Shown here: piece after piece, positions 12,619-61,748 of the stretch
Position numbering within the stretch: position 1 is the first letter of the stretch
Layout of the letters: the number at the start of each line of letters is the position of its first letter
From: an uncultured Kiritimatiellota bacterium
GTDB taxonomy: Bacteria; Verrucomicrobiota; Kiritimatiellia; RFP12; DVOR01
Assembly (NCBI GenBank): GCA_944391085.1
Contig: CALXSE010000003.1
Location: 54,143 to 118,142 of the forward strand
Length of the DNA: 64,000 nt
Direction: 5' to 3'
The notes under the pieces: model-generated
The model's database searches: none
What the model saw: the letters and a program-made list of their open reading frames with translations, nothing else
Told to the model about the DNA's origin: nothing
Position numbers and translations under genes: made by a program

Positions 12619-12633
12619 GCTTTTATCCCACTT

Positions 12634-12687
12634 CAACGCAATTTCCAAAAAATTGCGTTGAAATCCGCCCCGAGGTGTTGTATACTA
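12634..12687 (+). promoter_or_regulatory. Fic gene promoter with overlapping 27-bp palindromic operator
   Basis: CAACGCAATTT-ccaaa-AAATTGCGTTG (12634..12662) has perfect 11-bp arms. The right arm overlaps the -35 TTGAAA (12659-64). Seventeen nt on is the -10 TATACT (12682-87). SD and ATG follow at 12711. Confidence 0.55.
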
Positions 12688-12710
12688 GGCGGCGAAAGGA
12701 GGGCAAAGCG

Positions 12711-27866: not shown

Positions 27867-27957
<91 letters not shown>

Positions 27958-41505: not shown

Positions 41506-41517
41506 GCCGGGCTCCTT

Positions 41518-43463: not shown

Positions 43464-43512
43464 GCGTGACCCTTTCCATCGCAAAGGCGCGATTATACCA
43501 AAGCCCGCGCGC

Positions 43513-44397: not shown

Positions 44398-44398
44398 T

Positions 44399-45153: not shown

Positions 45154-45159
45154 CGCCGC

Positions 45160-45825: not shown

Positions 45826-45922
45826 CCCGAGATCCTTTCAGAAGACAATCCCCGTCAGTATACCACAATCCACGAAAAAGCCCCGGGCGAACCCGGGGCC
45901 CTTTGGGGCGCAGGGCGCCCGC

Positions 45923-46537
45923 TCAGGCCGCGCGGCGGCGAAGCGCCACCCCAGCCACGCCCAGCGCCAGGAGCGCCAGCGCCGTCGGCTCGGGCAGAAC
46001 CGCCGTCTCGTTCGCCGTCAGCCAGCCGATCTGCTCGGTGGTGAGGTTGCCGGAATAGGCGGCGGAACCGACGATGTCCCACGCGTCGTTGTCGTACAGC
46101 CACACGTTCAGGCCGCTCTTGTTGCCGCCTTCGTCGAACGAGGCGTAGAGATCGCCGTCGACGTAGATGTTCACGGTGATCTCGCTCGTTGAGACGGGCT
46201 CATAGTTGATGGCGATGGTGTGGATGCCGGTGCCAAGCGTCGGGCGATCGGCACTGGGCGACCAATTGCCGGCCTGATAACGGAGCGAGCCGTCCGTGTT
46301 CAGCTTCAGGAAGGCGTCGCCGTTCCAGTAGCCGAACTTGACGAGATCCGTGCCGTCCGCCGACACCGCCTGCGTCACGTCGACGGTCACGACGTAGGCG
46401 AAGGGGTTGGTGTAGCCCGTGCCGGAGATGATGCCCTTGTTATCGTAGGCGCCGCTCTCCTGCCAGGTCAGCGTCACCGCGTGCGCGGCGGAGAGGGCCA
46501 GTGCGGCGAAGGCCGCCGCCAGGACTGTTCTTTTCAT
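45923..46537 (-). CDS. PEP-CTERM sorting-domain surface protein (paralog of 11800..12447)
   Basis: Signal peptide MKRTVLAAAFAALALSAAHA; C-terminal LPEPTALALLALGVAGVALRRRAA is identical to the paralog. Real start at 46537. The track ORF has a 72-codon junk extension. Confidence 0.8.
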   Translation of the reverse strand: MKRTVLAAAFAALALSAAHAVTLTWQESGAYDNKGIISGTGYTNPFAYVVTVDVTQAVSADGTDLVKFGYWNGDAFLKLNTDGSLRYQAGNWSPSADRPTLGTGIHTIAINYEPVSTSEITVNIYVDGDLYASFDEGGNKSGLNVWLYDNDAWDIVGSAAYSGNLTTEQIGWLTANETAVLPEPTALALLALGVAGVALRRRAA

Positions 46538-46843
46538 GTGAAGGAATACCTCCCAATCGCCCCTACAACGTGCGGAGGCAGGCCCGGGGACGAAAACGTG
46601 CCCACTTCCGATGCCGCTTGGAGGTCTTAGGAAACCCGAGTCATGACACCAAAAGTGGGCACGCGACGCCGCGTGCTCGCAGTTTGGACACTGACTCTGA
46701 AAGTTCCTAAGTTCCCAAGCATGTCCTTGTGCGTCCGCACAAATCCGTGCCACGGCTCACCCGTGGCGTGCCACTAAGATACCACCGCCCGCCTCCGCGA
46801 CGCAAGCGTTTTCTTCCAAAGCCCCCTTCATTCAAATTGACGC

Positions 46844-46873
46844 TTGACACAAGAAGGCCGGCTGCGCTATCCT
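46844..46873 (+). promoter_or_regulatory. Promoter for HMA-chaperone/P1B-ATPase operon
   Basis: TTGACA (46844-49, overlapping a second TTGACG at 46838-43), 18-nt spacer, TATCCT (46868-73). A CAAACaggcGTTTG dyad lies just downstream. Confidence 0.45.
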
Positions 46874-46934
46874 AAGGCCGTTGTTCAATCAAACAGGCGT
46901 TTGATGCAAAGCCACCATGGAAAGGTTGTCAATC

Positions 46935-47150
46935 ATGAAGCAATCGTTTCGCCTGCAAGGGCTTGACTGCGCGAATTGCGCCGCCAGGCTGGAGCGCGCC
47001 CTCAACAAACTCGAAGGCATGGGCCACGCCTCCGTGAACTTCCTGGCCCAGCGCATGACCCTCGAGGCCGAGGACGCGCGCTGGGACGCCGTCGTCCGCG
47101 ACGCCAGGGCCCTCGTCAAGAAACTCGAGCCCGACGCGGTGGTGGCCTGA
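46935..47150 (+). CDS. Heavy-metal-associated (HMA) domain metallochaperone (CopZ-like)
   Basis: MKQSFRLQGLDCANCAARLERAL carries the GxxCxxC metal-binding motif. SD GGAAAGG lies 8 nt upstream. It immediately precedes the P1B-ATPase. Confidence 0.7.
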   Translation: MKQSFRLQGLDCANCAARLERALNKLEGMGHASVNFLAQRMTLEAEDARWDAVVRDARALVKKLEPDAVVA

Positions 47151-47178
47151 GCCCCCGCCGGCCGGAAAGGAGGACGCC

Positions 47179-49056
47179 ATGACGCGCAAACAACGCAAAG
47201 GGCTCATCCGCATCGCCGCGGGCCTGGCCCTCTTCGCCGCCGGCTGGTGCGTGCCCGGGGGCTGGCTCGGCGGCTGGGCCGCGCGCGCCGTCTTCGCCGC
47301 CGCCTACGCCCTCGCCGGGTGGGACGTGCTCCTGGCCTCGTGCCGGAACATCCTGCGCGGCGAGGTCTTCGACGAAAACTTCCTCATGTCCGTCGCCTCC
47401 ATCGGCGCCATGGCCCTGGGAGACTTCGCCGAGGGCGCGGCCGTCATGCTCTTCTACCAGATCGGCGAATGGTTCCAGGCCTACGCCGTCGGCCGCACGC
47501 GCGGCTCCATCGCCGCCCTGATGGACATCCGCCCGGACTTCGCCGACGTGGTGCGCGGCGGCGAGACCCTCCGCGTCGCCCCCGAGGAGGTGCAAGTCGG
47601 CGAGACGATCCGCGTGCGCCCCGGCGGGCGCGTCCCCCTCGACGGCACCGTCCTCAAAGGCGAATCCGCCCTCGACACCGCCGCCCTCACCGGCGAGTCG
47701 CTCCCCCGCCCCGTCATGCCCGGCGACCCGGCCCCCAGCGGCTGCATCAATCTCTCCGGACTCCTCGAGATCCGCGCGGACCGCCGGTACGGCGACTCCA
47801 CCGTCGCGCGCATCCTCAGCCTGGTCGAGGAAGCCTCCGGGCGCAAGGCCCGCGCCGAGGCCTTCATCACCCGCTTCGCGCGCGTCTACACCCCCTTCGT
47901 CTGCGTCTGCGCCCTTGCCCTGGCGCTGCTGCCGCCGCTCTGCCTGGGCGGCGCGTGGGGCGTCTGGGTCTACCGCGCGCTCACCTTCCTGGTCATCTCC
48001 TGCCCCTGCGCGCTGGTCATCTCCGTGCCCCTGAGCTTCTTCGGGGGAATCGGCGCGGCCAGCCGCCGCGGCGTCCTGCTCAAGGGCGGCAACGCCCTCG
48101 AGACCCTCGCCCACGTCCGCACGGTGGTCTTCGACAAGACCGGCACGCTCACCCGGGGCGTCTTCGCCGTCTCCCGGGTCCTCCCCGCGCCGGGCTTCGG
48201 CCGGGACGCGCTCCTCGACCTCGCCGCGCACGCCGAGAACGCCTCCACCCATCCCCTGGCGCGGGCCGTCGTGGCGGCCGCGCCGGGCCCCGTCGACCCC
48301 GCGGCCGTCTCGGATCTCCGCGAACACGCCGGGCGCGGCGTCTCCGCCACCGTCAGGGGCCGCGCCGTCCTCGCCGGCAGCGCCGGGCTCCTGCGCGCCC
48401 ACGGCGTCGAACCCCCGGCGGACGTCCTCGGCCTCCCGGGCTCGGCCGTCCTGCTCGCCGTCGACGGCGCCTACGCGGGGGCCATCCTCGCGCAGGACCG
48501 GCCCAAGCCCGACGCCAAAGCCGCCGTCGAGGGCCTCCGCCGCGTCGGCGTCCGCCGCACGGTCATGCTCTCCGGGGACAACGAACCCGCCGCGCGCGCC
48601 GTCGCCGACGCGCTGGGGCTGGACGAGTGCCGCGCCAGGCTCCTCCCCGCAGACAAGGTCGCCCACGTCGAGCGCCTCCTTGCCGAGACGCGCGCCGCCG
48701 ACCCCGGGGCCCGCCTGGCCTTCGTCGGCGACGGCATCAACGACGCCCCCGTCCTGGCCCGCGCCGACGTCGGCGTCGCCATGGGGGCCCTCGGCTCCGA
48801 CGCCGCCATCGAGGCCGCCGACGTCGTGCTCATGGACGACCACGTTTCCAAGCTCCCCCTCGCCATCCGCATCGCCCGCGGCACGCTCGCCATCGCCTGG
48901 CAGAACATCGTCTTCGCCATCGGCGTCAAGGCCGCCATCCTCCTGCTTGGCGCGCTCGGCCTCGCGAATCTCTGGCTCGCGGTCTTCGCCGACGTCGGCG
49001 TCGCCTTCCTCGCCATCCTCAACGCCGTCCGCGCCCTCACCCTCGCGCGCCGTTGA
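47179..49056 (+). CDS. Heavy-metal translocating P1B-type ATPase (Cd2+/Zn2+/Co2+ type)
   Basis: CPC motif (ISCPCALVISVP), DKTGTLT phosphorylation site, and GDGINDAP hinge. 625 aa. Confidence 0.9.
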   Translation: MTRKQRKGLIRIAAGLALFAAGWCVPGGWLGGWAARAVFAAAYALAGWDVLLASCRNILRGEVFDENFLMSVASIGAMALGDFAEGAAVMLFYQIGEWFQAYAVGRTRGSIAALMDIRPDFADVVRGGETLRVAPEEVQVGETIRVRPGGRVPLDGTVLKGESALDTAALTGESLPRPVMPGDPAPSGCINLSGLLEIRADRRYGDSTVARILSLVEEASGRKARAEAFITRFARVYTPFVCVCALALALLPPLCLGGAWGVWVYRALTFLVISCPCALVISVPLSFFGGIGAASRRGVLLKGGNALETLAHVRTVVFDKTGTLTRGVFAVSRVLPAPGFGRDALLDLAAHAENASTHPLARAVVAAAPGPVDPAAVSDLREHAGRGVSATVRGRAVLAGSAGLLRAHGVEPPADVLGLPGSAVLLAVDGAYAGAILAQDRPKPDAKAAVEGLRRVGVRRTVMLSGDNEPAARAVADALGLDECRARLLPADKVAHVERLLAETRAADPGARLAFVGDGINDAPVLARADVGVAMGALGSDAAIEAADVVLMDDHVSKLPLAIRIARGTLAIAWQNIVFAIGVKAAILLLGALGLANLWLAVFADVGVAFLAILNAVRALTLARR

Positions 49057-49064
49057 GCCCGCCG

Positions 49065-49376
49065 TCAGGAGACGATGAGGAGGCGGGGGGCCGAGGCGCG
49101 GGGGCCCAGGCAAAGGCGCAGGAGGTAGAGGCCGCGCTTGAGCGTGGGGGGCAGGCGCAGGAGGATCAGGCCCTCTTCGTCGACCTCCTGGGGGCGGAGC
49201 GTCCGGCGGCGGCCCGCGCAGGCCCGGCGGGGACCCAGCGGCAGGGGGCGCAGGCCAAGGCGCGGGGGCGGCGCGCCGCGGGAGAGGGGGTCGGTGCGCA
49301 ACAGAAGAAGCTCGCCCGGGGCGCAGCGCCAGAAACGTCCCTGGCGCACGGAATAGGCGCAAAGCAGTTGTGTCAT
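49065..49376 (-). CDS. Hypothetical small Arg/Leu/Pro-rich protein (103 aa)
   Basis: Strong SD AAAGGAAAGGAAACGAC immediately upstream of the ATG at 49376. Composition is odd (R/P/L-rich) and there is no recognisable domain. Confidence 0.35.
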   Translation of the reverse strand: MTQLLCAYSVRQGRFWRCAPGELLLLRTDPLSRGAPPPRLGLRPLPLGPRRACAGRRRTLRPQEVDEEGLILLRLPPTLKRGLYLLRLCLGPRASAPRLLIVS

Positions 49377-49444
49377 GTCGTTTCCTTTCCTTTAATATGG
49401 GGTTTGGGGCGCCCCGGGGCGGTCTCCCGCCCGCGGGGCGTGGG

Positions 49445-49522
49445 TCAGCCCAAGAGGTTGAGCAGACCGCGCAGGAGGCTCCGCAGAGCCTCGAGCAAGA
49501 CGCCGATCAACGGGTTTTCCAT
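49445..49522 (-). CDS. Putative 25-aa amphipathic/hydrophobic peptide MENPLIGVLLEALRSLLRGLLNLLG
   Basis: Perfect SD AAGGAGGTG 4 nt upstream of the ATG (49520-49522). Below the track's length cut-off. Confidence 0.3.
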   Translation of the reverse strand: MENPLIGVLLEALRSLLRGLLNLLG

Positions 49523-49620
49523 GCGCACCTCCTTTCGTCGGGGCGGCCGCCCGGGGGGGCGGGCCGCTTGCAGGCGCGGGGCCCGGGGCGTCTGCCCCGC
49601 CGGCTTGGCGGGGCGGGGCG

Positions 49621-50382
49621 TCAGTTGGGCACCGCGGTGACGAGGGTGTCCTTGTATTCCACCATGTAGAGCACGTCTCCGCCCATGCGGGTGCGGAAGA
49701 AGAACTGGAGGGGGACGCCGTCGCTGTCGAAGGGCTCGTCGTTGTAGAGGAGGACCTTGGTGGGGTCGCCGGTGGGGTCGCCGTACTGGTCGCAACGGAT
49801 CTCGCGCCCGGCGTAGAGCATGAAGAAGCCCTCGTCCTCGGCCTCGTCGTCCCACGTCAGCTTGGTGCCCTGCACCAGGAAGGGGCCGGGGCCCACGATG
49901 ACGCCGCGCGCGCCGCTGTTCACCAGCTCGGTCACGTCCGTCAGGGTCGGCAGGGTCGGCAGATCCACGCGCCGCACGCCGCTGCCGGAGGCCGCCGTGC
50001 GCAGGCGCGCCCCGACGGTGGCGTTGACGACGAGCCTGTTCTTGCTCGGGTCCCACGCCGCGTCCTCCGCCGCGAAGGTGCCGCGCACCGCCGGGGCGAA
50101 CTTCACCAGCCCGCTGATGTTCACCGCCCGGCCCGCGGAGACCAGCTCCGCCACCAGGTCGGCGAATTCGCCGAGCACCAGGCGGATCGTGCTCTCCTTC
50201 ACCGCGCAGCCTTCCCTGACCATCTGGCGCGCCACGTCCTGCAGGCCATAGGTCTCCTTCACCTCCACGCGCCCCACGAAGGTCTCGGCGCCGGCCTTCT
50301 CGGTGGCCAGCTCGTTGCGCACCAGCCGGTAGTTCACGCTCTTGAGGTCTCCCTCCGAATTGATCACGATGTCCGTGTCCAT
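49621..50382 (-). CDS. HU-like DNA-binding domain protein with DUF4469-like C-terminal domain (tentative)
   Basis: Real start MDTDIVINSEG at 50382 with SD GAAAGGAAC. The N-terminal stretch ESTIRLVLGEFADLVAELVSAGRAVNISGLVKF matches the HU/IHF-like fold. The 47 codons upstream in the track lie inside the 172-bp direct repeat and are identical to the spurious ORF at 54702..58553. Confidence 0.55.
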   Translation of the reverse strand: MDTDIVINSEGDLKSVNYRLVRNELATEKAGAETFVGRVEVKETYGLQDVARQMVREGCAVKESTIRLVLGEFADLVAELVSAGRAVNISGLVKFAPAVRGTFAAEDAAWDPSKNRLVVNATVGARLRTAASGSGVRRVDLPTLPTLTDVTELVNSGARGVIVGPGPFLVQGTKLTWDDEAEDEGFFMLYAGREIRCDQYGDPTGDPTKVLLYNDEPFDSDGVPLQFFFRTRMGGDVLYMVEYKDTLVTAVPN

Positions 50383-50398
50383 GTCCGTGTTCCTTTCA

Positions 50399-50570
50399 CG
50401 CGGCCCCCTTTCCCGCCCCGGGCAACCCGCCCGGCGGCGCCGCACGCCGGGGGCCGCCCCACGTGCGCACCCTCCGCGCACCCCTGACAGGCCGCGCGGG
50501 GAAAACCGCGCAACCCCTTCCAAGCCAACGCCTCCGGGATACTGACACCCCTGACGCGCCCCCTGACGCC
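50399..50570. repeat. 172-bp direct repeat, copy 1 (identical to 58216..58387)
   Basis: CGCGGCCCCCTTTCCCGCCCCGGGCAACCCGCCCGGCGGCGCCGCACGCCGGGGGCCGCCCCACGTGCGCACCCTCCGCGCACCCCTGACAGGCCGCGCGGGGAAAACCGCGCAACCCCTTCCAAGCCAACGCCTCCGGGATACTGACACCCCTGACGCGCCCCCTGACGCC is found identically at both sites by visual alignment. Identical spurious ORF translations in the track confirm the match. Confidence 0.9.
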
Positions 50571-50604
50571 GCGCCGCCCCCTAGGGGGCGCCCCCTCCGG
50601 GGGG

Positions 50605-50643
50605 CAGGAGGACGGGCTACGCCCCTCCTCCTGTTTTGGTTTG
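50605..50643 (+). terminator. Intrinsic-terminator-like hairpin plus T-tract on the plus strand just after repeat copy 1
   Basis: CAGGAGGACGGGC tac GCCCCTCCTCCTG (13-bp stem, 1 mismatch) followed by TTTTGGTTTG. It is preceded by the perfect 14-bp palindrome AGGGGGCGCCCCCT at 50583-50596. Confidence 0.5.
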
Positions 50644-51038
50644 CTCAAGGTCCGTCCATCTTTCCTCTTTCTTCGCTTCGGTCCTACAAGTGCGCAATTA
50701 CATTGTGGACGATTCAGCTTGACAGGGAGGGAACAAGTCTTGTAGCATTGGGGCAGATGGCGCGGGGCGTGCGCTTCGTCGGTTGGCGTTGGGCATGCTT
50801 TTCGGGGCCGGAGCTGATGCGTTTGCGCGTACGTTCGTTTCAGAGGGAACCATGGCCTTTCCAAGCCTGGGCGAAATGTGTCGCGGAGGCGCGCCCAAGG
50901 GGTGCTCCTTGGGGGTGTTTTCTCGCGTTGTGTTTCCAAGCGCGGTTGTGGGTCCTCTGAAGGACTTTGGGGGGAGCCTCACTGGTTGTTGTCTCTCCGT
51001 TTCGTCGTTGGTGTGAAAACAGGGATTGGAGAACGGTC

Positions 51039-54000
51039 ATGAAGCGGTTTGTCTTTTGGATTTGGGCGCTGTGTGCGGCGGCGCCGGGGTTTGCCGATCA
51101 GGTAACCATTGATGGGGTCACGTGGACGTACAGCGTCCGCTCCAGGGAAGGGGCGTCGTATGCGGTGATTGAGGAGGCCAGCGGGGTGCAGGGCGCGGTA
51201 ACCGTGCCGGCAACGCTGGGCGGGGCGCCGGTCACGGAGCTTGAAACCGGATTTTTCGGTATGAGCGGCGTCTTCTACGGATGCACCGACCTGACGGAGG
51301 TCCGCTGGGAGGAGGGGTGCGCGATCGAGAAGATCGGGGGGTATGCTTTCAGGGGGTGCACAAGCCTGACCCAGATCACGATCCCGCCTTCGGTGACGAA
51401 ACTGGGGAACCAGGCCTTCAGAGGGTCGGGGCTGGAGACCGTCACGATTCCGGGCACGGTGAAGACGCTGGGCGCAGAGGTCTTCGCGGAGTGCCCCGAC
51501 CTGAAGACGGCTGTCTTTGAGGAGGGGGAGCTGATAGGGGATAGTACGAGCTCTGTTGATTGGACGAATCTTTTCAGGAAATGTCCGGAGCTGGAGTCGG
51601 TGACGGTGAAACGATTGCCGTACATCAAGGAGGGGATGTTTGCCGATTGTCCGAAGTTGACCTCGGTGTCGTTGCCGGTGACGGTGTCTGAGATCATGGG
51701 AATGGCGTTTTCCCGGAGCCCGAATATCACCTTCACGCTCGATGCCGGGGTGACGAGATTCTCTGTCGAAAACGGAATGCTGCGCTCCGCGACGGGACTC
51801 TATTATGTGCCGGGGGACCCCGAACGACTGGAAATCCCGGACGGGATTACCGATATTCTCGGCGGCATCTGCCGGGGGATGACGAACCTGCGCGAGGTGA
51901 CCGTGCCCGACACGCTGAAATCCATCGGCACGTATGCTTTCTACGGGTGTGCGTCGCTGGAGGAGATCGATCTTTCGGGAACGCAGGTGGCGGCACTGAC
52001 GGAGAGCGCCTTTGCGAATTGCCCCGCGCTGGCATGGGTGCGCCTGCCGGCGACCGTCACGTCGTTCGAGATCGGCAAGACCTTCGACGGTTCGCCGAAT
52101 GTGCGCTTTGAGGTGGCGGAGGGGAGCAAAACCTTTGCCTCGGACGAACAGCACGCGCTTTACAGCAAGGATATGACGATCCTTTTCCTCGGCCCCAATG
52201 CGGCATCCTTCACGGTGCCTGAGACGGTGACGGCTATCGCCCCTTATGCCTTCGACGGCCGCGCCGCGCTGACGTCCATCACCATTCCGGCGAGCGTCAG
52301 AGACTTCGGGTATGATGTCTTCCGCGGGTGCACGAATCTGGCGTCGGCGAACGGGCTCTGGCTTGATGCGGAGCAGACGACCGTGCTCGGGATTGACGCG
52401 GGAGAGACCGCGGTCGCCGCGGAAGATTTCCCGGAGACCGTCTGGCGCGTGGCCGATTACGCCTTTTATGAAAACACGTCTCTGAGCTCTGTTGTCTTCC
52501 CCCAAAAAGTAACCTCCATCGGGGCTTCCGCTTTTTACTATTGCGGCAATCTGGGGAGCGTGACCTTCGCCGAGGGACTTGAGGAGATTCGGGACGGGGC
52601 CTTTTACGGTACCGGCATCGGCGGGGAGCTCAATTTGCCCGCCACGCTGATGCACCTCGGGGATCGGGCGTTCGGCTGGACGTTTATAACAGAGGTGAAG
52701 ATGGGCGGCGAGCCGGGGCTGCGCGATGACCCGAATCTGACGCTCGCGGGAAACCCTTTTTCCGAGTGCGAGTGCCTGCCTGTGGATCCCGAGACATGCA
52801 TCATGTATGAGACTGCCGTCGCGAACGGTCCCCGCGTGGTTGTCGGCGTCGGTGAATATCATGACGAGACCACCGGCTACACGCACTATAATGTCCGGGT
52901 GTCGGATCTTGTCTTTCCGGAGAGCGTTCGCTACATCCTCAGTGGGCTTGACATCAGTGATAGCCCGAGAACCATCACGACCACGGGGCCAATCTACAGC
53001 GTTGGGAGCGCCGCCTTCATAAGTCCGACTGCCAAGGTGCACACCATCACCTTCGGCGGCAATGTGGGCGTGGTGGAATCGAAGGCCTTCTATGAGCTTC
53101 CGTATCTGCAGGTGCTGACTTTCAAAGGAAAAGTCGGTACCATCCGCAGCAATGTCCTCTGGGGGACCCCTCGCAGTCTGACGGAGGAAGGCAGCCTTTC
53201 GATAACCTTTGAAGGGGACGTCGGCACGATTGAGGCAGGCGCCTTCGACGCCACTACCAGCCAGGAATCCAACGTGTACGGATGGTCCCCTTTAAAGGAG
53301 CATCTCACCTCGGTGACCTTCGGCGGAACGATCGGCACTATCGGAGAGGATGCCTTTCGCGGGTGCTCCTCACTGAAGACCCTTGCCGGATGCAAGCCGG
53401 CGAACCTTGGCGCAAGAGCTTTTTACAATTGTCAGGCGCTGACGGAGGCTCCGGACCTGAGCCTTCTGAGCGAGGTGCCGCAGGGCGCTCTGCTGAACTG
53501 CTTGAACATAAAAGCGGTCGACGCCGGTGCGGCGACGGTCATCGGACCCTCAGCTTTTCAGGGATGCGTGTCGCTCGTCTCGGTGAACGCCCCGATGGCG
53601 GCGACGGTGGGAAAGAGCGCCTTCAAGATGCTGCCCAAGAGCGGCGGCGGTTGGGCTACGGCCCTGACGGAGGTGACGCTGGCCGAGACCGTCACGCTCG
53701 GCGCGGAGGCCTTCAGCGGATGTGCCGAGCTGACGGGACTGAAGACCGCTTCCGGCGGTGAGCCGGTGGTGACGTTGGCGACGTCCGTCTTCGGCGGATG
53801 CGCCAAGCTCACCGGTGTCACGCTTAATCCGGCCACGACGGAGATCCCAAGTGGCGCTTTTTCCGGATGCGCGGCCATGACCGCCTTCCCCTGGCCGGCC
53901 AATATCAGAATCATCGGAGGTTCCGCCTTCAGCCGCACCGGCCTTACGGGAGAGCTGAACCTGCCCGCCACGGTGGAGAAGGTCGACTACTATGCCTTTG

Positions 54001-57000
54001 ACGGGTGCAAGGGTCTGACCAAGATTACGCTTAATTCCGCGCCGGAGCTGCTCACGCCCTTCTCCGGGTGCTCCGGCGTCACGGAGGTCGTCTATACGTG
54101 CGATGTGCCGGAGCTTCCGCGGGTGTGGGACGGCCTCACAGGCCTGACTTCCTTCACGGTGAACGGCGATATCGGCACGTCGGCGAATTTTGCGCTCTCG
54201 GATTGCGACAGCCTGGAGACGATGACGGTGAAGGGCAATTGGGGGACCGTCGCGGCCGGAACCTTCTATGACCTTAGCAAGTTCACGACGCTGACCGTCA
54301 CGGGCACCGTCGGCGCCGTCGGCGACTCGGCCTTTATGGGGTGTACGGCGCTGACTTCGGTGCCAACAATCGGCGATGCGTCCCTTGAGGGGGCCATCGG
54401 CAACTCTGCCTTCCAAGACTGCTCGAGCCTGGAATCCGTCACGCTCGACCGCGACATCCGCGCCATCGGCAACTACGCCTTCCGTGACTGCACAGGCCTC
54501 AAGACCGTCTCGATCTTGGGCGATCTCCGCACGATTGGCACCTATGCCTTTTCGGGCTGCACGGCGCTGAACAATCTGACGCTGCCGACCTCGCTGGTCT
54601 CCATCGGCGACTACGCCTTCCAGAACTGCAACGCGCTCCCAAAAGACGCTGACTACATCTACACCTCGGCAGACAAGACGGTTATTCTGAGCCGGGTTTC
54701 GTCATCGCCCAAGCTGACCACGCTCAGCATCCCCGAGGGCGTCACCATGATCGGCCCCAGCGCGTTCGCCTCGGAATACAATCTGACGTCGCTGACGTTG
54801 CCTTCGACCCTGAAGGCCATCGCCAACAGGGCCTTCTATAATTGCAACAAGCTTACGAAGGTCACCATCCCGGCCGGTGTCGTGACCATCGGCGACTATG
54901 CCTTCCAGAGCTGTTCCAAGCTTGCGACGGTGACCTTTGAGCCGGAGAGCCAGCTGGCAACGATGGGCAAGGGAGCCTTTTCCAGTTGCAGTGCGCTCAC
55001 GGGCTTCGCCTTCCAGCCCGGGGTGACGGCCATCGCCGACAGCCTCCTGAGCGGATGCGGCAAGCTGGCGGCGGTGACCTATGAGCCGGGCTTTGCGCCG
55101 GAGTCGATCGGGGCAAGCGCCTTCAGCGGCTGCACGGCGCTCTCCGCGCTGCCTATCCCCGAAAGCGTGACCGTCATCGGCGACTATGCCTTCCAGAACT
55201 GCGACGATTTGACGGAGATGGGCATCCCGGAATTGGTCACGGCCATCCCGGACAACTGCTTCAACAACTGTGACGGCCTCACCGCCGTGACCTTCGGGGC
55301 GCAGGTCACGTCCATCGGAGCCTCCGCCTTCTATGGATGCGCCAAGCTGACCACGCTGCCGGCGGCGGATGCCGATGGCATCGTCATCCCGGAGACGGTG
55401 ACCACCCTCGGCGAAGAGGCCTTTTATAATTGCAAGGCCGTGACGAAGGTTACCTTGCCGGATGTCATCACCGAGATTCCCGAGTCGCTCTTCTATAGGT
55501 GTGCCGCGCTGGACACGGTCAAGCTGGGTTCGACCGTGACAAAGATCGGCGCCTCCGCCTTCCGGAACTGCACGGCGCTGGAAAGCATCGAACTGCCCGA
55601 CACGCTGACCACCTTGGGATCGTCGGCCTTCAGCGACAGCGGACTGACCTCCGTGACCCTGCCGGACGGACTGACGAAGCTGTCCTATTACGGGTTCTCC
55701 GGGTGCAAACGGCTCGCTTCGGTGACGCTGAGCCCGGATACCGTCGCCCTCGACACGGGGACCTTCTACGGGTGTACGGCTCTCACGGCCATCACCCTGC
55801 CCGCGGGGGTCACGGAGATCCCTCAGGCCGCCTTCATGAACTGCACCGCGCTGGAGACCGTCACGCTGGAGGGAGTGTTGACCAAGATCGGCTATCAGGC
55901 TTTCAGCGGTTGCCCATCGCTCCGCTTCGCGATTCCCGAGACGGTTGTCGCCATCGGCGGACAGGCCTTCAAAGGGTGCGCGGCCCTTACGGAGATCAGC
56001 ATCCCGGAGGGCGTCACGGAGCTGGCGGCGAATGTCTTCCAAGATTGCGGCGGCCTGACGGAAGTCACCATCCCGGCCACCGTCGGGAAGTTCAACGCGA
56101 GCGCCTTCGCGGGGTGCGACAGCCTCACGACGGTGACGCTCGGCGGATCGCCCACCGCCGTGCCGAATGCGATGTTCGACGGCTGCACGGCGCTGACCAC
56201 CATCCGTCTGCCGGACTCCGTCACCACCATCGGCGACTCCGCCTTCCGGAACTGCACGGCGCTCACCTCCATCGATATTCCCCCCCGCGTGACCAAGATC
56301 GGGACCTACGCCTTCCAAAAGTCCGGCCTGACCTCTGTCGTCGTGCCCGACACGGTGACCTCGCTGGGGACCTATACCTTCCAGGGCTGCGCGGCGCTGA
56401 CCTCGGCCACCGTCGGCGAGGGCGTCGCCACGATCGGCAACTACACCTTCGGCGACTGCACGGCGCTCACGAAGGTGACGCTGCCGGCCGACCTGAAGGA
56501 GATCGGAAGATCCGCCTTCTACGGATGCACGGTGCTCACGGCCATTGACATTCCCTCCGGCGTGACCAAGGTCGGGAGCAACGCGTTTGAAAAGTCCGGT
56601 CTGATCGCCGCCGTCCTGCCCGACACCGTGACCTCGCTGGGAACCTATGCCTTCCAGAACTGCACGTCGCTGACTTCGGTGGATGTCGGCGCGAGGCTTA
56701 CGAAGCTCGACACCCGCACTTTCTACGGATGCACGGCGCTCGCGGAGGTGACGCTGCCGGCCGGCCTGAAGGAGTTCGGGAGCAGCGCGTTCCAGAACTG
56801 CACGGCGCTTGATGCCATCACAATCCCCGAGGACGTAACCAAAATCGGGAGCAGCGCGTTCCAGGACTGCACGGCGCTCTCGGAAGTGACGCTGCCGGCC
56901 GGTCTGGAGGAGATCGGGAGCAGCGCGTTCCAGAACTGCACGGCGCTCTCGGCCATCATAATCCCCGAGGGTGTGACCACCATCGGAAACTACGCCTTCA

Positions 57001-58181
57001 AGAACACCGGCCTGACGTCCGTCTCGGTGCCCGGCTCGGTGACCTCGCTGGGGACGTATGTCTTCCAGAATTGCACGGCGCTGACCTCGGCCGCCTTCGG
57101 CGAGGGCATCAACGCGATCCCCAATTACACGTTTTACGGATGCACGGCGCTCTCGAAGGTGACGCTGCCGGCGACGCTGACGGAAATCGGCGCTAACGCC
57201 TTCAACGGATGCACGGCGCTCACGGCCGTCACAATCCCCTCCGGCGTGACCAAGATCGGGAATTACGCCTTCCTGAAGTGCGGCCTGACGTCCGTCTTGG
57301 TGCCCGGGTCGGTGACCTCGCTGGGGATGTACGTCTTTCAGAATTGCACGGCGCTGACCTCGGCCACGCTCGGGGAAGGGATCACGGTCATCCCGAGCAG
57401 TACCTTCTACGGGTGCACGGAGCTGGCGGCCGTCACGTTGCCGGACAGCGTGACCACCGTCAATTCCAACGCCTTCGGGAACTGCAGGAAACTGGTCTCG
57501 CTCACCATCCGGGGCGATGTGCCCACTTCGGTGAACAGCTACGCCTTCCCCACGGGGAATTATCTGGCCGAAGGCGCCACGCTTTATTACCCGGCCGCGC
57601 AGGAAGCGGCGTGGAAGGCGGCGGCCGACGCGGACGGCAAATGGAAGGGCTTCACACTGGCCGTGCTCGCGGCCGTGGCCATGCCCAACGTCCCCGACGG
57701 CGCGGCAGGTTACACCGACATGGCCGTGCTCGAACGCCTTCAGGCCGCCGCCTTGGAGGCCGGCATCACCGACGGCACGTTCGACGTCTTCCGCCAGAAC
57801 AGCGACGGCACCGTGGTTCGGGAACTCCTCGCTCCGGCGACCGTGGAGGATGCGCTGAACTGCTTTGCCGGTCTTGAGCCGGTGGCGGTCACGCTTGAGG
57901 ACGGGACGGCCATGGTGGTCCTGCCCTATACCTTCGACGTCTGCGGCATCTCCGTCGAGGCGTCGGAGGTCGTCGTCACGGTCAAGGTCGAAAGCGGCCT
58001 TCCCGAGATGCCCCTGACCTTCGCCGAGGGCATCGCCTATGCCATTGTGCCCACCACGGAGGGCACCGCGCCCGTCGTCACCGTGCGGGAAGTGGCCGGC
58101 GACACCGCCACGCTGGCGTTCACCCCGCCGGAGGGACACTCCACCTACCTCTTCAAGGCGTCGGTTTCGCCTCTTCGGTAA
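51039..58181 (+). CDS. Giant (2380 aa) secreted BspA-type leucine-rich-repeat surface protein
   Basis: Signal peptide MKRFVFWIWALCAAAPGFA. It has dozens of about 22-aa BspA-like LRR units (IPxSVTxIGxxAFxxCxxLTSVTLP), with higher-order near-identical repeats of about 88 aa (264 bp) in the C-terminal half, and a non-repeat C-terminal domain. SD GGAGAA precedes the ATG at 51039. The track ORF starts 24 codons earlier. Confidence 0.85.
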   Translation: MKRFVFWIWALCAAAPGFADQVTIDGVTWTYSVRSREGASYAVIEEASGVQGAVTVPATLGGAPVTELETGFFGMSGVFYGCTDLTEVRWEEGCAIEKIGGYAFRGCTSLTQITIPPSVTKLGNQAFRGSGLETVTIPGTVKTLGAEVFAECPDLKTAVFEEGELIGDSTSSVDWTNLFRKCPELESVTVKRLPYIKEGMFADCPKLTSVSLPVTVSEIMGMAFSRSPNITFTLDAGVTRFSVENGMLRSATGLYYVPGDPERLEIPDGITDILGGICRGMTNLREVTVPDTLKSIGTYAFYGCASLEEIDLSGTQVAALTESAFANCPALAWVRLPATVTSFEIGKTFDGSPNVRFEVAEGSKTFASDEQHALYSKDMTILFLGPNAASFTVPETVTAIAPYAFDGRAALTSITIPASVRDFGYDVFRGCTNLASANGLWLDAEQTTVLGIDAGETAVAAEDFPETVWRVADYAFYENTSLSSVVFPQKVTSIGASAFYYCGNLGSVTFAEGLEEIRDGAFYGTGIGGELNLPATLMHLGDRAFGWTFITEVKMGGEPGLRDDPNLTLAGNPFSECECLPVDPETCIMYETAVANGPRVVVGVGEYHDETTGYTHYNVRVSDLVFPESVRYILSGLDISDSPRTITTTGPIYSVGSAAFISPTAKVHTITFGGNVGVVESKAFYELPYLQVLTFKGKVGTIRSNVLWGTPRSLTEEGSLSITFEGDVGTIEAGAFDATTSQESNVYGWSPLKEHLTSVTFGGTIGTIGEDAFRGCSSLKTLAGCKPANLGARAFYNCQALTEAPDLSLLSEVPQGALLNCLNIKAVDAGAATVIGPSAFQGCVSLVSVNAPMAATVGKSAFKMLPKSGGGWATALTEVTLAETVTLGAEAFSGCAELTGLKTASGGEPVVTLATSVFGGCAKLTGVTLNPATTEIPSGAFSGCAAMTAFPWPANIRIIGGSAFSRTGLTGELNLPATVEKVDYYAFDGCKGLTKITLNSAPELLTPFSGCSGVTEVVYTCDVPELPRVWDGLTGLTSFTVNGDIGTSANFALSDCDSLETMTVKGNWGTVAAGTFYDLSKFTTLTVTGTVGAVGDSAFMGCTALTSVPTIGDASLEGAIGNSAFQDCSSLESVTLDRDIRAIGNYAFRDCTGLKTVSILGDLRTIGTYAFSGCTALNNLTLPTSLVSIGDYAFQNCNALPKDADYIYTSADKTVILSRVSSSPKLTTLSIPEGVTMIGPSAFASEYNLTSLTLPSTLKAIANRAFYNCNKLTKVTIPAGVVTIGDYAFQSCSKLATVTFEPESQLATMGKGAFSSCSALTGFAFQPGVTAIADSLLSGCGKLAAVTYEPGFAPESIGASAFSGCTALSALPIPESVTVIGDYAFQNCDDLTEMGIPELVTAIPDNCFNNCDGLTAVTFGAQVTSIGASAFYGCAKLTTLPAADADGIVIPETVTTLGEEAFYNCKAVTKVTLPDVITEIPESLFYRCAALDTVKLGSTVTKIGASAFRNCTALESIELPDTLTTLGSSAFSDSGLTSVTLPDGLTKLSYYGFSGCKRLASVTLSPDTVALDTGTFYGCTALTAITLPAGVTEIPQAAFMNCTALETVTLEGVLTKIGYQAFSGCPSLRFAIPETVVAIGGQAFKGCAALTEISIPEGVTELAANVFQDCGGLTEVTIPATVGKFNASAFAGCDSLTTVTLGGSPTAVPNAMFDGCTALTTIRLPDSVTTIGDSAFRNCTALTSIDIPPRVTKIGTYAFQKSGLTSVVVPDTVTSLGTYTFQGCAALTSATVGEGVATIGNYTFGDCTALTKVTLPADLKEIGRSAFYGCTVLTAIDIPSGVTKVGSNAFEKSGLIAAVLPDTVTSLGTYAFQNCTSLTSVDVGARLTKLDTRTFYGCTALAEVTLPAGLKEFGSSAFQNCTALDAITIPEDVTKIGSSAFQDCTALSEVTLPAGLEEIGSSAFQNCTALSAIIIPEGVTTIGNYAFKNTGLTSVSVPGSVTSLGTYVFQNCTALTSAAFGEGINAIPNYTFYGCTALSKVTLPATLTEIGANAFNGCTALTAVTIPSGVTKIGNYAFLKCGLTSVLVPGSVTSLGMYVFQNCTALTSATLGEGITVIPSSTFYGCTELAAVTLPDSVTTVNSNAFGNCRKLVSLTIRGDVPTSVNSYAFPTGNYLAEGATLYYPAAQEAAWKAAADADGKWKGFTLAVLAAVAMPNVPDGAAGYTDMAVLERLQAAALEAGITDGTFDVFRQNSDGTVVRELLAPATVEDALNCFAGLEPVAVTLEDGTAMVVLPYTFDVCGISVEASEVVVTVKVESGLPEMPLTFAEGIAYAIVPTTEGTAPVVTVREVAGDTATLAFTPPEGHSTYLFKASVSPLR

Positions 58182-58215
58182 ATCAATGCCGAACCCGCGC
58201 TCCTGGAATCCGGAG

Positions 58216-58387
58216 CGCGGCCCCCTTTCCCGCCCCGGGCAACCCGCCCGGCGGCGCCGCACGCCGGGGGCCGCCCCACGTGCGCACCCTCCGCGCACCC
58301 CTGACAGGCCGCGCGGGGAAAACCGCGCAACCCCTTCCAAGCCAACGCCTCCGGGATACTGACACCCCTGACGCGCCCCCTGACGCC
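58216..58387. repeat. 172-bp direct repeat, copy 2 (identical to 50399..50570)
   Basis: Begins 35 nt after the LRR gene stop. The 3' arm of a hairpin (CCGCGCTCC-tggaatcc-GGAGCGCGG, 58195..58220) overlaps the repeat start. Confidence 0.9.
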
Positions 58388-58482
58388 CCCCACCCCGCCG
58401 CAACCCTTTTTCCGCCAAAACCCGCCTTTCCCCAGACACCCCCCAACAAAATGTAACGATAGCGCAATGAAATCCGCCAAAA

Positions 58483-58592
58483 GTGTGACAATAACGCAAT
58501 ATCCAGAAAACAAGCCTTGAGCCCAACAACGCCAAGCACTCCGGCCCCCCCATAACGCAATGGAATTGCCAAAAAGTGTCACACTAGCGCAA
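58483..58592 (+). promoter_or_regulatory. Recurrent motif copies C' and C upstream of the second Fic gene
   Basis: C' (58483-58512) reads gtgtGACAaTaaCGCAATatccAGAAAACAagc. C (58580-58592) reads gtgtCACACTaGCGCAAcacag. Between them lie GAAATCCGCC (shared with the first Fic gene's upstream region) and GGAATTGCC (revcomp of GCAATTCC there). Confidence 0.5.
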
Positions 58593-58827
58593 CACAGCCT
58601 CTGAACGCTCCCCCCAGGCGCGTTGTTTATGCGGCACACACGATGGGCAGAGAGGCCCGAACGCGCTTCTGCAAGGTCGTCGCGCCGGGTTGCCCCACCA
58701 CCCGCACCCTGCCGGAACACGCCACACCCCCCTCCCAAATCCGTAAGTCTTTTTTCGCCGAAACCCCCATTTGTAACTTTTTTTGCCCGTTTGTAACTGT
58801 TTTCGTTTCCCGCCCAAACGCCCGCTC

Positions 58828-58856
58828 TTGTCGAATTGCCCACGCTGTGGTAAATT
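58828..58856 (+). promoter_or_regulatory. Sigma70-like promoter for second Fic gene
   Basis: TTGTCG (58828-33), 17-nt spacer, TAAATT (58851-56). It lies 50 nt upstream of the proposed ATG at 58906. Confidence 0.45.
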
Positions 58857-58905
58857 GTTGTGCGTTTTGAGGGGCCATTTCCGATCCCTCCCCCGTAAGC
58901 GTTTG

Positions 58906-60414
58906 ATGAAAGCGGAACCGCTAGGCTATCTGTTTTTGATTGAGGCGTTCGACTTGGACGTCCTTGCGCCCTTGTGCCAGACCTTCTGCGGGGAAGGGGC
59001 TCAGCGGCAGGAGCGGGTCGCCGGCGCCACCACCACGCGCTTCCTGCCGCCGAGGGCTTGTCACCCGGCAACCTGGCAGCATCAGCTGGACTTCGCGCTG
59101 AAACAGGAGGGCGTGAACCTCGAGGTGCTGCGGGCCTTCTTCGCCAAGGTGCCCGAGCAGGCGTTAGCCGATTATGTCGCGGCGCGTTCCGTCGGCATCT
59201 ACCGTCGGCGCGTCTGGTTCCTCTATGAGTTCCTCACGGGGCGCGAATTGCCCCTTCCCGCCCTGCGGCAGGGCAACTACGGCTTTGTCTTGGATCCGGA
59301 GGCCTATGTGGCGCGCGCCCGGGAAGATTCCCCCCGCGCCAAGCGCCAGCGCCTCTTCAACAACCTGCCCGGGGTGGCCGATTGCTGCCCCATGGTGCGC
59401 CGGACCGCCAAAATCCGCCACGAGGAGGCCGACGATTTGGCGGCGCAGGTGCGCAAGGCCCTGAATCGTTATCCCGCCGAGCTGTTGGCGCGAGCGAACC
59501 GTTGGCTGCACCTCAAAGAGACCAAGGCTTCCTTCGCCATCGAGCATGCCTCCCCGGATCGACGACGCGAGGCGGCTTTCCTGGAAATCCTGGCGCAAGC
59601 CGGTTCGGAGCCGCTGACCAAGTCCCTTCTCCTGCGTCTGCAGAACGCCATCGTGGACCCGCGTTACCGAGAGGAGGACTACCGCGACGACCAAGTCTAC
59701 GTCGGCGAAACCCTGCGCTCTGGCAACGAGCTTGTCCATTTCGTCGGCGCGCGCCCCGAGGACGTGTCAGGGCTCATGGAGGGCCTTCTCACGGTGGCCG
59801 ACCGCCTCACGCGGGGCGATACGCACCCATTGGTCGCAGCCGCCGCCGTGGCCTTTCTCTTTGTCTTCATCCACCCCTTCAATGACGGGAACGGCCGCCT
59901 TCACCGTTACCTGCTGCAACACATCCTCGTCGCCAAAGGCTTCATCCCCGGTGGCACGGCCTTTCCCCTCTCCGCCGTCCTCCAACGCGACCCCACGCGC
60001 TATGACGCGATGCTGGAGACCTTCTCCAAGCGCCTCATGGGGCGCGTGGACTACGCGCTCGACCCGCAAGGCCGCATGACCGTGCGCAACCCGACTGCGG
60101 ACTACTATCGCCACATCGACCTCACCCCCATCGTCGAAGCGCTCTTCGACGTCGCGCGCGAAACCCTGCGCAAGGAACTGATCCCCGAGCTCAGCCACCT
60201 GATGCTGTGGGACGACATCCAAGCCCGCTTCCGTGCCATCGTCGACATGCCCGACGCCCGCGCCCAACACTTCGCGCGTCTGGCTCTCCAAAACGGCGGC
60301 ACGCTCGCAAAGGCACGCCGAGGCGACTTCCCCGAGCTGACAGACGACGAAGTTGCCACCCTCGAACAAGCCATCGCCCAAGCCCAAGCCACGCTGCCCG
60401 TCCCCGCGCCGTGA
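58906..60414 (+). CDS. Fic/DOC family protein (second copy; different architecture from 12711..14045)
   Basis: Fic motif HPFNDGNGRLHRYL. A putative inhibitory-helix variant is KASFAIEHASPD (E retained, G/N replaced by H). Start placed at MKAEPLGY (58906) because a TTGTCG-17-TAAATT promoter (58828..58856) lies inside the longer track ORF that begins at 58783. Confidence 0.8.
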   Translation: MKAEPLGYLFLIEAFDLDVLAPLCQTFCGEGAQRQERVAGATTTRFLPPRACHPATWQHQLDFALKQEGVNLEVLRAFFAKVPEQALADYVAARSVGIYRRRVWFLYEFLTGRELPLPALRQGNYGFVLDPEAYVARAREDSPRAKRQRLFNNLPGVADCCPMVRRTAKIRHEEADDLAAQVRKALNRYPAELLARANRWLHLKETKASFAIEHASPDRRREAAFLEILAQAGSEPLTKSLLLRLQNAIVDPRYREEDYRDDQVYVGETLRSGNELVHFVGARPEDVSGLMEGLLTVADRLTRGDTHPLVAAAAVAFLFVFIHPFNDGNGRLHRYLLQHILVAKGFIPGGTAFPLSAVLQRDPTRYDAMLETFSKRLMGRVDYALDPQGRMTVRNPTADYYRHIDLTPIVEALFDVARETLRKELIPELSHLMLWDDIQARFRAIVDMPDARAQHFARLALQNGGTLAKARRGDFPELTDDEVATLEQAIAQAQATLPVPAP

Positions 60415-60526
60415 GCCATAAAACACCCTGCCACCCCTGGCACGCACCCCTGGCTTCCCGCCACGCCCACGCTTGCCGGGGGTGGGTTCCTTTGCTATCC
60501 TCTTGGCCAGAAAGGAGACACTCGCC

Positions 60527-60634
60527 ATGAAACCCACCTTCTCCCTCGCCCTCACCCTCCTCGCCGCGCCCCTCCCCGACGCCCTCCAGGCCGCCGCCCG
60601 CCACGCCATCCTCGCCGAGGCCCTCGCCCTCTGA
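60527..60634 (+). CDS. Putative 35-aa small protein MKPTFSLALTLLAAPLPDALQAAARHAILAEALAL
   Basis: Own promoter TTGCCG-17-TGcTATCCT (60473..60501). SD GAAAGGAGA lies 8 nt upstream of the ATG. It is followed by an 11-bp-stem GC hairpin plus TTT (60648..60690). Too short for the track. Confidence 0.4.
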   Translation: MKPTFSLALTLLAAPLPDALQAAARHAILAEALAL

Positions 60635-60773
60635 GGCCCCCGCCCACGCGCCGCCCCGCGGCCCCGTTCGCCGGGGCGGCGCGGCGCTTTCGTCCCGGTG
60701 CGGGGCGGCGGGTTGCAGGGCGGGGGGATTTGTGCGATACTATGAGAAGATTTGTTTCACAAAGGAGTTTGCA

Positions 60774-61748
60774 GTGGCGTTCACACATATCGCAGGAACG
60801 GGCTCGGCGGTGCCGGAGAAGGTGCTGACGAACGACGACATGGCCAAGTTGGTCGACACGAGCGACGAGTGGATCGTCTCGCACACGGGCATCCGCCAGC
60901 GCCACGTGGTGGGGCCGGGCGAGAACGCCGCGACGCTCGGCTGCCAGGCCGCCCGCCGCGCGCTCGAGGACGCGGGCGTCGCGCCGGAGGAGCTGGGCAC
61001 GGTCATCGTCACCACCACCACGCCGGATTACGCGATCTACCCCTCCGTCTCGTGCGAGATCCAGGGGATGCTGGGCGCGAAACACGCGGCGGCGTTCGAC
61101 CTGAGCGCGGCCTGCCCGGGCTTCGTCTACGGCCTTGTCGTCGCGCGCGGCCTGATGCAGGTGGACCCCCGCCCCATCCTGGTCGTCTCCACCGAGATCA
61201 TGAGCCGCACCATCAACTGGTCCGACCGCAACACCTGCTGCCTCTTCGGCGACGGCGCCGGCGCCGTGGTGCTGAAGAACACGGACGAGCCCGGCGGCCT
61301 GGGCTTCCACCTGCTGGGCGCGGACGGCACGGGCGCGCTGGCCATCCACCGCGAGGGCGGCGTCCGCACCGAGGAGACCGCCCGCAGCGCCCCCGGCGAC
61401 CTGAAGATGGACGGCCGCGCGGTCTTCAACTTCGCCGTCCGCTCCTTCTGCGACATCATCGCCCAGACGCTGGGGCATTACGGCTGGACGGAGAAGGACA
61501 TCGCCTGGATCGTCCCCCACCAGGCCAACACCCGCATCATCGACGCGGCCGTCAAGCGCATCGCCGTGCCGCACGAGAAGTTTTACGTGAACATCGACCG
61601 CTTCGCGAACACCTCCAGCGCCTCCATCCCCATCGCGCTGGACGAGATGAAGCAGAAGGGCCTGCTCAAGCGCGGCGACCGCCTGGTCTTCGCCGCCTTC
61701 GGCGCGGGCCTCGTGTACGGCGGCATCGCCGTCGAATGGACCAAGTGA
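60774..61748 (+). CDS. fabH: 3-oxoacyl-ACP synthase III
   Basis: GTG start at 60774 preceded by AAGGAG; the in-frame ATG at 60732 has no SD. Motifs VAFTHIAGTGSAVPEKVLTNDDMAKLVDTSDEWI...CPGFVYGL...HQAN...GDRLVFAAFGAGL are FabH signatures with the Cys-His-Asn triad context. Confidence 0.9.
   Translation: MAFTHIAGTGSAVPEKVLTNDDMAKLVDTSDEWIVSHTGIRQRHVVGPGENAATLGCQAARRALEDAGVAPEELGTVIVTTTTPDYAIYPSVSCEIQGMLGAKHAAAFDLSAACPGFVYGLVVARGLMQVDPRPILVVSTEIMSRTINWSDRNTCCLFGDGAGAVVLKNTDEPGGLGFHLLGADGTGALAIHREGGVRTEETARSAPGDLKMDGRAVFNFAVRSFCDIIAQTLGHYGWTEKDIAWIVPHQANTRIIDAAVKRIAVPHEKFYVNIDRFANTSSASIPIALDEMKQKGLLKRGDRLVFAAFGAGLVYGGIAVEWTK

Follow-up and report, generated by a model that had tools for sequence, protein, structure and literature searches.

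Direct repeats around a single giant gene

How does one giant gene come to lie between two identical copies of the DNA upstream of its neighbor? The question is posed by a 64,000-nucleotide stretch of contig CALXSE010000003.1 (hereafter, the window) from an uncultured Kiritimatiellota bacterium, in which two copies of a 172-bp sequence, here termed R (R1 on the left and R2 on the right), bracket a gene for a 2380-aa leucine-rich repeat (LRR) protein. The answer that we favor as probable is a strain-variable duplication-insertion, by which the LRR gene unit was added and R came to be copied to both sides without any dedicated recombinase. The locus presents an ordinary repeat-mediated gain/loss polymorphism and no new kind of mobile element.

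A preliminary description of this DNA, made from the letters alone, had judged the two 172-bp sequences identical by eye, and self-comparison of the window bore out both their exact ends and their identity: the copies at 50399-50570 and 58216-58387 match at 172/172 bp, are 78% GC, and start 7,817 bp apart. Such an identity is far above chance expectation. The match runs on for 9 to 10 nt at reduced identity, giving 182 bp if the diverged 10-nt tail is counted, and it is in these tails that the copies differ (GCGCCGCCCC at 50571-50580 after R1, CCCCACCCC at 58388-58396 after R2). No 14-mer of R recurred elsewhere in the window on either strand, and no other repeat of at least 40 nt with high identity was found in positions 1-51000. 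Between the copies lie 7,645 bp (50571-58215), which had been described as a noncoding leader plus one LRR gene; in agreement with this, 51039-58181 is the sole frame there with a coding signature. The parts of the duplication are as follows (L numbers denote comparison contigs):

49621..50382, minus strand: HU-domain DNA-binding protein gene, 253 aa (Pfam HU-DNA_bdg 9.8e-17, HU-HIG 5e-7)
50399..50570, unstranded: R1, native upstream region of the HU-domain gene; single copy here in all related loci
50571..50580, unstranded: 10-nt tail GCGCCGCCCC after R1, derived form; also in the single-copy alleles L006, L008, L009, and L010; the left junction comes next
50581..58215, plus strand: inserted LRR gene unit, 7,635 bp; not in the empty-site conspecific or in sister-lineage loci
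58216..58387, unstranded: R2, identical to R1; junction reproduced in L015 and L021
58388..58396, unstranded: 9-nt tail CCCCACCCC after R2, ancestral form; shared with empty-site alleles and the sister lineage

The repeat and the HU-domain gene

Comparison contigs were found via the exact HU-domain protein, which matched 19 contigs in public assemblies, and then via the Fic protein encoded after R2; those of the same species share 98-99% nucleotide identity. All single-R loci (24/24) hold one copy, 13 of them in the same lineage as the window (L001, L003-L010, L014, L017, L020, L023) and 11 in a sister lineage that is ~10% divergent (L024, L030-L039). Because this one copy sits at the same place in all related loci, the sister lineage included, R is resident DNA that belongs upstream of the HU-domain gene, the ATG of which (50382) is 16 nt from R1. 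Same-lineage copies are identical to R or differ by one base, except in the recombinant L017, and sister-lineage copies are 82% identical at the same position. On the minus (HU) strand, R carries four GTCAGGG-type motifs, and the form GTCAG(G/T) is kept in both lineages. The preliminary description had read copy 1 as the former 3' end of a plus-strand gene; this must be given up, as R is HU-gene upstream DNA in every related locus, even at ~10% divergence.

Searches for a further identity of R came back empty: no sigma-70-like promoter was detected in it on the HU strand, Rfam holds no family for it, and its 29-nt core had zero matches in genome contigs, JGI metagenome contigs, and viral contigs. 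A riboswitch-like nature was considered and dropped, the RNA fold on the HU strand being no more stable than that of shuffled sequence (z -1.6).

Empty and occupied alleles

An empty site holding one repeat copy, which the recombination suggested in the preliminary description would leave behind, was found in conspecific contigs: R leads into the Fic leader, the Fic gene, and fabH in L001, L003-L005, L007, L014, L020, and L023. Other single-copy alleles differ to the right of R, with an AAA_14/DUF4143 gene present and Fic absent in L006 and L008 and with R running almost directly into fabH in L009 and L010. In the sister lineage, R is followed by AAA_14, usually Fic, and then fabH, and the LRR segment occurs in 0 of 11 loci.

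The closest comparison is provided by L014 (sample ERZ28614354, no Ns), which showed 0 differences from the window over 41089-50570 (9,482 bp) and 58216-61544 (3,329 bp). Across these 12.8 kb it is without exactly 7,817 bp, that is, one R plus the cargo, and the alignment differs only in the 10-nt tail; other conspecific strains are ~1.2% off the window over the same stretch (L001, for instance, has 127 mismatches in 10.9 kb). Because L014 is identical to the window apart from the 7,817-bp unit, the sequences indicate that one clone exists with and without the LRR gene and that its presence or absence changed very recently. A sibling sample of L014 from the same project yielded L015 (ERZ28613925, an 85.8-kb contig), whose right junction is of the occupied form, with 100% identity across 5,975 bp. 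This junction, running from the LRR 3' end through R and CCCCACCCC to the Fic leader, was reproduced in L021 (ERZ24773415) as well, and the left junction (HU gene, R, GCGCCGCCCC, CTAGGGGG and onward to the leader) was reproduced in L002 (ERZ24773514). The last of these represents the occupied allele on a second haplotype: its leader has 4 differences in 508 bp (~0.8%) from the window and its flank ~1%, and leader and flank being similarly diverged, the insertion is not brand new.

These independent junctions bear on the possibility that the arrangement is an assembly artefact or an episome, with the chromosome running HU-R-Fic and with R plus the LRR unit forming a 7.8-kb circle, or lying at another locus, that was threaded through the shared 172-bp node. 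An integrated copy and an R-sharing circle give the same de Bruijn graph topology, assemblers do break here, as is expected of a graph that branches at a repeat (the first base of R is also that of L016, and L022 begins inside R), and the exact 2380-aa protein had zero matches in the contig collection. In three other assemblies, nevertheless, a contig leads from the chromosomal flank across R into the insert (L002 at the left junction, L015 and L021 at the right one). No contig connects the 3' end of the LRR gene via R back to its leader, the segment has no replication gene, and searches of plasmid, phage, and viral collections gave no match (megablast with the 7.6-kb segment for plasmids and phages; the LRR promoter pattern for viral contigs). 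We consider this explanation highly improbable.

The difference between L014 and the window may have been either a loss or a gain, which is one of the points weighing against our favored account as a whole. In one version of a gain, presence and absence would be stable, with no ongoing excision: L014 would be ancestral, and the window's clone would have received the LRR+ allele from another strain by homologous recombination. The existence of that allele on the diverged L002 haplotype agrees with such an import, as does the activity of inter-lineage exchange, seen in a Fic segment that is 98.8% identical between lineages against 90% otherwise and in a crossover inside R in L017. Yet a donor diverged by 1% should have brought flanking single-nucleotide polymorphisms, and there are none in 12.8 kb unless both crossovers fell within R; moreover, deletion between 172-bp repeats by RecA-dependent recombination is in general a more frequent event than allele import. 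An imported allele seems unlikely. In L017, the part of R distal to the HU gene and the right flank are of the sister type and the proximal part of R is of the window type, a mosaic which implies that a homologous crossover took place inside R.

The inserted unit and its junctions

The LRR unit brings all its own parts, from promoter and leader through the coding sequence to the terminator:

50605..50641, plus strand: terminator-like hairpin and U-tract at the left end of the insert (fold -48.7 kcal/mol for 50571-50650, z -2.5)
50719..50748, plus strand: promoter-like site of the LRR gene, TTGACA-18-TAGCAT (10/12 matches; conserved in L012 and L029)
50749..51038, plus strand: conserved structured 5' leader of ~290 nt (internal terminator-like hairpin at 50894-50923; a helix pairing with the ribosome-binding site)
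51039..58181, plus strand: BspA-type LRR protein gene, 2380 aa (signal peptide; non-LRR C-terminal domain of ~230 aa)
58195..58220, plus strand: LRR terminator hairpin (its 3' arm ends in CGCGG, 5 nt that also begin R2; full-length form in L012)
58397..60414, plus strand: right neighbor, Fic leader and Fic-domain gene (58906-60414), itself strain-variable

The hairpin and T-tract noted after copy 1 in the preliminary description are present, at ~50605-50641, and belong to the inserted DNA. In L029, a paralogous LRR unit comes after a plus-strand gene and its terminator, so the hairpin was probably carried over from such a gene ahead of the LRR unit at the donor locus.

At the right junction, a relative of the LRR gene in L012 shows what the terminator looks like when whole, GAACCCGCGCTCCGG-ATTC-CCGGAACGCGGGTTC followed by TCTT. 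In the window its stem is cut short, and the last five bases, CGCGG, are at the same time the first five of R2. The junction therefore has the appearance of an illegitimate fusion through 5 nt of microhomology within a hairpin, with no recombinase core. Short GC-rich microhomologies are what the joints of homology-facilitated illegitimate recombination (HFIR) use. No motif was common to both junctions, and among inverted pairs in 48000-61000 only one weak case (34 nt, 74%) was found, with its arms outside the ends of the insert.

Nor does the segment have the marks of known mobile elements. It encodes no recombinase or transposase; there are no terminal inverted repeats of a transposon, and the duplication is 172-182 bp, against 2-14 bp for transposons. 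As regards an integrase-borne island, the neighbors are the HU-domain and Fic genes with no integrase among them, R is a 5' upstream region, and there is no crossover core. An integron would call for an integrase and for attC-like imperfect inverted repeats at the cargo ends, and neither was found.

R1 and R2 could still be imagined as attachment sites of an integrative element served in trans by a site-specific recombinase, for example the serine recombinase encoded at 28489-29076. Perfect direct repeats around a single cargo, a clone-identical empty site that keeps one repeat, the Resolvase-domain gene in the window, and the several different rearrangements that break right after R and its tail would all suit such an element. 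Against it, R is resident in all strains, and likewise in the sister lineage, which is 10% divergent and is without the insert throughout; at R2, the left edge of the repeat falls on a fusion inside the LRR terminator stem, not on a shared core, and no motif is common to the junctions; relatives of the LRR unit lie in unrelated contexts without R; and no recombinase is encoded in or beside the segment, the one in the window being 21 kb off by a tRNA-Ser gene, just as the preliminary description had placed an integrase nowhere between the repeats and a serine recombinase elsewhere. Attachment sites are accordingly very improbable here. A related and equally improbable idea is that the right edge of R, after the 10-nt tail, serves as a dedicated docking site at which cargo (the LRR unit, the AAA_14/DUF4143 ATPase, Fic) is swapped by an unrecognised site-specific mechanism with R as the attachment site, possibly involving the HU-domain protein or a trans-acting recombinase; were it true, the LRR adhesin would be an on/off cassette under programmed control instead of a chance product of homologous recombination. 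Site-specific recombination at R is, in sum, unlikely. Of the on/off change by repeat recombination that had been proposed for this locus, precise loss or gain stands on population evidence (L014 and the other assemblies), and the site-specific variant has nothing to support it.

The proposed route of insertion and loss

The duplication-insertion that we favor would have started from a DNA fragment carrying R, the GCGCCGCCCC tail, and the LRR unit. Circularised by end-joining at CGCGG, which would link the LRR terminator to the left edge of R, the fragment would enter a chromosome carrying R and the CCCCACCCC tail via one homologous crossover within R. Such a single-crossover route would necessarily duplicate R and leave the regulatory regions of both HU and Fic genes intact. 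It is favored because the R1 tail is derived, being shared with other single-copy alleles, and the R2 tail ancestral, being shared with the sister lineage. Two R copies 7.8 kb apart would then be a substrate for RecA-type recombination, giving either precise deletion or amplification by unequal sister exchange, and the resulting population would consist of cells with and without a large LRR protein, secreted or on the surface. More speculatively, the single-copy alleles with a GCGCCGCCCC tail in L006 and L008 may be deletions resolved at the extreme right of the homology. What the sequences show directly is resident DNA duplicated around an insert, one microhomology joint, the lack of a recombinase, a clone-identical empty allele that keeps one repeat, and, in L017, homologous exchange within R. 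A precedent exists in Escherichia coli, where DNA with one-sided homology was mostly integrated in recircularised form by single crossover, giving duplications of 109-950 bp (PMC3240628).

Several further points weigh against this route. An allele with R joined directly to the LRR unit and lacking R2 was not found, leaving the source of the circle hypothetical; no donor sequence was recovered for 50581-50716 from which any microhomology at the left joint could be read; and all evidence comes from short-read metagenome assemblies, in which excision, circles, and tandem copies are without read-level support. An LRR-R-LRR junction occurs in no contig, and only 0 and 1 copies were seen. Finally, the unlike 10-nt tails fit a crossover between two alleles and need an extra assumption if the duplication is taken as a simple target duplication.

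That last form of duplication is the substance of a further alternative, in which a staggered double-strand break, or microhomology-mediated template switching during replication, took up an LRR fragment, the 172-182 bp being a long target-site duplication; in the template-switch version, the template would be left at the right edge of R and re-entered at the left one. The right junction, with its 5-nt overlap in a GC-rich hairpin, and the left junction, which abuts the GC-rich near-palindrome GCCCCCTAGGGGGC, are compatible with capture of this kind, stable hairpins, of a kind able to stall replication, are located at or close to either end of the insert, and no donor with R adjoining LRR was found. 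It predicts equal tails, yet these are GCGCCGCCCC and CCCCACCCC, and a later exchange would be needed; the R1 tail is also the same as in L006 and L008-L010, suggesting that the incoming DNA already carried R and its tail. We regard target duplication as possible but rather unlikely.

Likeness to known systems

Among described systems, the nearest in layout is cagA of Helicobacter pylori, which is flanked by 462-bp CHA-ud direct repeats and occurs in 0-4 tandem copies, with dynamics shown in culture (PMC5358911). Both cases have a single host-interaction gene between identical direct repeats, forms with and without the gene, a deletion that keeps one repeat, and homologous recombination between the repeats as the proposed driver. 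Unlike for cagA, only 0 and 1 copies are known here, from metagenome assemblies only, and R is shorter (172 bp) and is a duplicated promoter region of a neighboring gene.

In mechanism, the favored route resembles Campbell-type insertion-duplication as studied in the E. coli lacZ/pJA2 system (PMC3240628), in which the homologous segment is duplicated (109-950 bp there, 172-182 bp here) and one novel joint is made by illegitimate end-joining with no dedicated recombinase; that system, unlike this one, was a laboratory conjugation with designed homology, the donor here being inferred. HFIR, which according to PMC3240628 is described in naturally competent bacteria, likewise has one end anchored by homology and the other joined illegitimately. 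It is predicted to delete recipient DNA and not to duplicate the anchor (PMC3240628), and the duplication of R, being unlike HFIR, indicates a circular intermediate or sister-chromatid involvement. With att-flanked genomic islands, the locus shares direct repeats around accessory DNA of deviant composition and an empty site with one repeat. It differs from them in having no integrase, in that R is a promoter region and no tRNA or gene 3' end, in the lack of a junction core, and in that one joint lies inside a terminator hairpin.

The mechanism is textbook, and the value of the case is descriptive, not conceptual: it documents well, for a phylum that has been little studied, one more case of a known process. 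It offers a nucleotide-resolved instance of a giant adhesin-like gene gained or lost within one clone of the uncultured gut phylum Kiritimatiellota, for which duplication of a 172-bp promoter segment suffices. Where metagenome-assembled genomes differ in having surface LRR genes, the cause can be true within-clone heterogeneity, beyond assembly noise, and the HU-to-fabH region near the replication origin is flagged as a recombination-prone islet.

The LRR protein, its composition, and its relatives

The 2380-aa protein has a Sec-type signal peptide and 21 stretches matching Pfam LRR_5 at 1515.8 bits (PF13306 cut-off, 27.7), a count and score that place it among BspA-type LRR proteins. Like known surface proteins of this type, it combines LRR_5 stretches with an N-terminal signal peptide; unlike them, it has no full-length relative above ~35% identity among the matches listed, a listing swamped by distant LRR proteins, and its C-terminal 230 aa match no Pfam family. 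Searches with C-terminal and N-terminal pieces recovered fragments at 75-97% identity from the same sample series. As a side observation, two database proteins (P0168 and P0184) have BspA-type LRR_5 repeats fused with HU-HIG and Bac_DNA_binding domains, a curious pairing beside an LRR unit that landed next to an HU-HIG-type gene.

The preliminary description had also held the LRR gene to be deviant in codon usage and GC content. It does fall in the low tail of the window for both GC (63.1% versus 70.8±3.6% for 41 window genes; z -2.2) and GC at third codon positions, GC3 (82.1% versus 92.7±4.5%; z -2.4), with A/T-ending codons making up 18% of its third positions, above the pooled genes. The contrast drawn between G- and C-ending codons was overstated: G-ending codons are moderately enriched (e.g., ACG, 0.51 versus 0.36), and G exceeds C at third positions in 7 of the 41 window genes, which puts the LRR gene within the range of the window. 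The low-GC3 class also takes in the window's two Fic and two PEP-CTERM genes. The LRR gene is thus accessory-like in composition and no unique outlier. Contigs with its closest relatives are 62-66% GC, and the composition is compatible with a source in a lower-GC relative or a lower-GC accessory compartment.

The relatives of the LRR unit occur in unrelated contexts and without R. In L012, the LRR gene is 93-96% identical at the nucleotide level, with homology extending from the promoter -35 element (window 50717) to 58220. It lies there between two transposase-like genes, 5-1156 (minus strand) and 9539-9787 (minus strand), one with a weak rve match (E 6e-4) and the other with a marginal rve_3 match (E 0.07); C-terminal motifs of the latter resemble IS30-type transposases by eye. 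At least one relative of the cargo therefore sits in DNA rich in insertion sequences. A composite transposon in L012 was considered and rejected because the transposase-like genes on its two sides are not related. The relative in L011 (92-93% identity) is followed by glycoside-hydrolase genes, and that in L013 (83% over the 3' end and 94% in a shorter upstream stretch) lies among housekeeping genes in a genome of ~57% GC. L025-L029 carry paralogues that have the promoter, leader, and signal peptide in common and differ in upstream context; in L029, the stretch from terminator to promoter is weakly homologous to window 50642-50716.

A structured leader of the LRR family

The leader of the LRR gene (50749-51038) is conserved in paralogues from unrelated contexts (L012 1290-1580, L025 169-462, L027 165-458, L029 8560-8849); no leader sequence was obtained from L040. 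RNAalifold on this leader gave 101 pairs, 13 of them with compensatory changes, the effective lineages numbering only three. In the alignment, 92.8% of cells were paired, versus 45-55% with partners slid. The internal hairpin and U-tract at 50894-50923 are kept by compensatory changes, and another helix pairs with the GGAG ribosome-binding site. Rfam holds no family for it. The leader is a candidate transcription attenuator or cis-regulatory RNA of giant LRR genes, and it may be the more original lead to come from this locus.

The surrounding locus and the wider window

The HU-to-fabH intergenic region is a hypervariable islet (window 58397-60703; L006, L008-L010, L024, L030-L039). In some strains, the AAA_14/DUF4143 gene replaces 13 nt at window 58632/58645; Fic (~58811-60456) is present or absent by strain; and the entire islet is missing in L009 and L010. 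Origin of these last two alleles by precise deletion between GCGCCGCCCC motifs at 50571-50580 and 60652-60661 was rejected, as the sequences after the motifs disagree. The Fic segment proper (58645-60602), at 98.8% identity between lineages that are otherwise ~90% identical, points to recent exchange. A few kb past the right end of the window lie dnaN and dnaA (located 8-12 kb beyond Fic in L015 and L016), which places the variable locus close to the presumed replication origin.

The serine recombinase mentioned above is a small protein of 195 aa with a Resolvase N-terminal domain (6.9e-35), encoded at 28489-29076 (plus strand) beside tRNA-Ser(GGA) at 27867-27957 (minus strand); no link between it and R was found, its target sites not having been sought. 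The second Fic-domain gene of the window, at 12276-14045, has a PEP-CTERM gene ahead of it (11743-12447), and both are low in GC3. An ARAGORN call of a 101-nt tRNA-Asp at 1957-2057 was set aside as a probable false positive, lying inside a giant frame and unconfirmed by Rfam. That frame, 3-7088 (minus strand), runs off the window start and encodes at least 2362 aa with a native-like GC3 of 0.94 and no Pfam domain, and at its stop-codon end lies 7089-8222 (minus strand), encoding a protein with an N-terminal methylation (pilin-like) motif.

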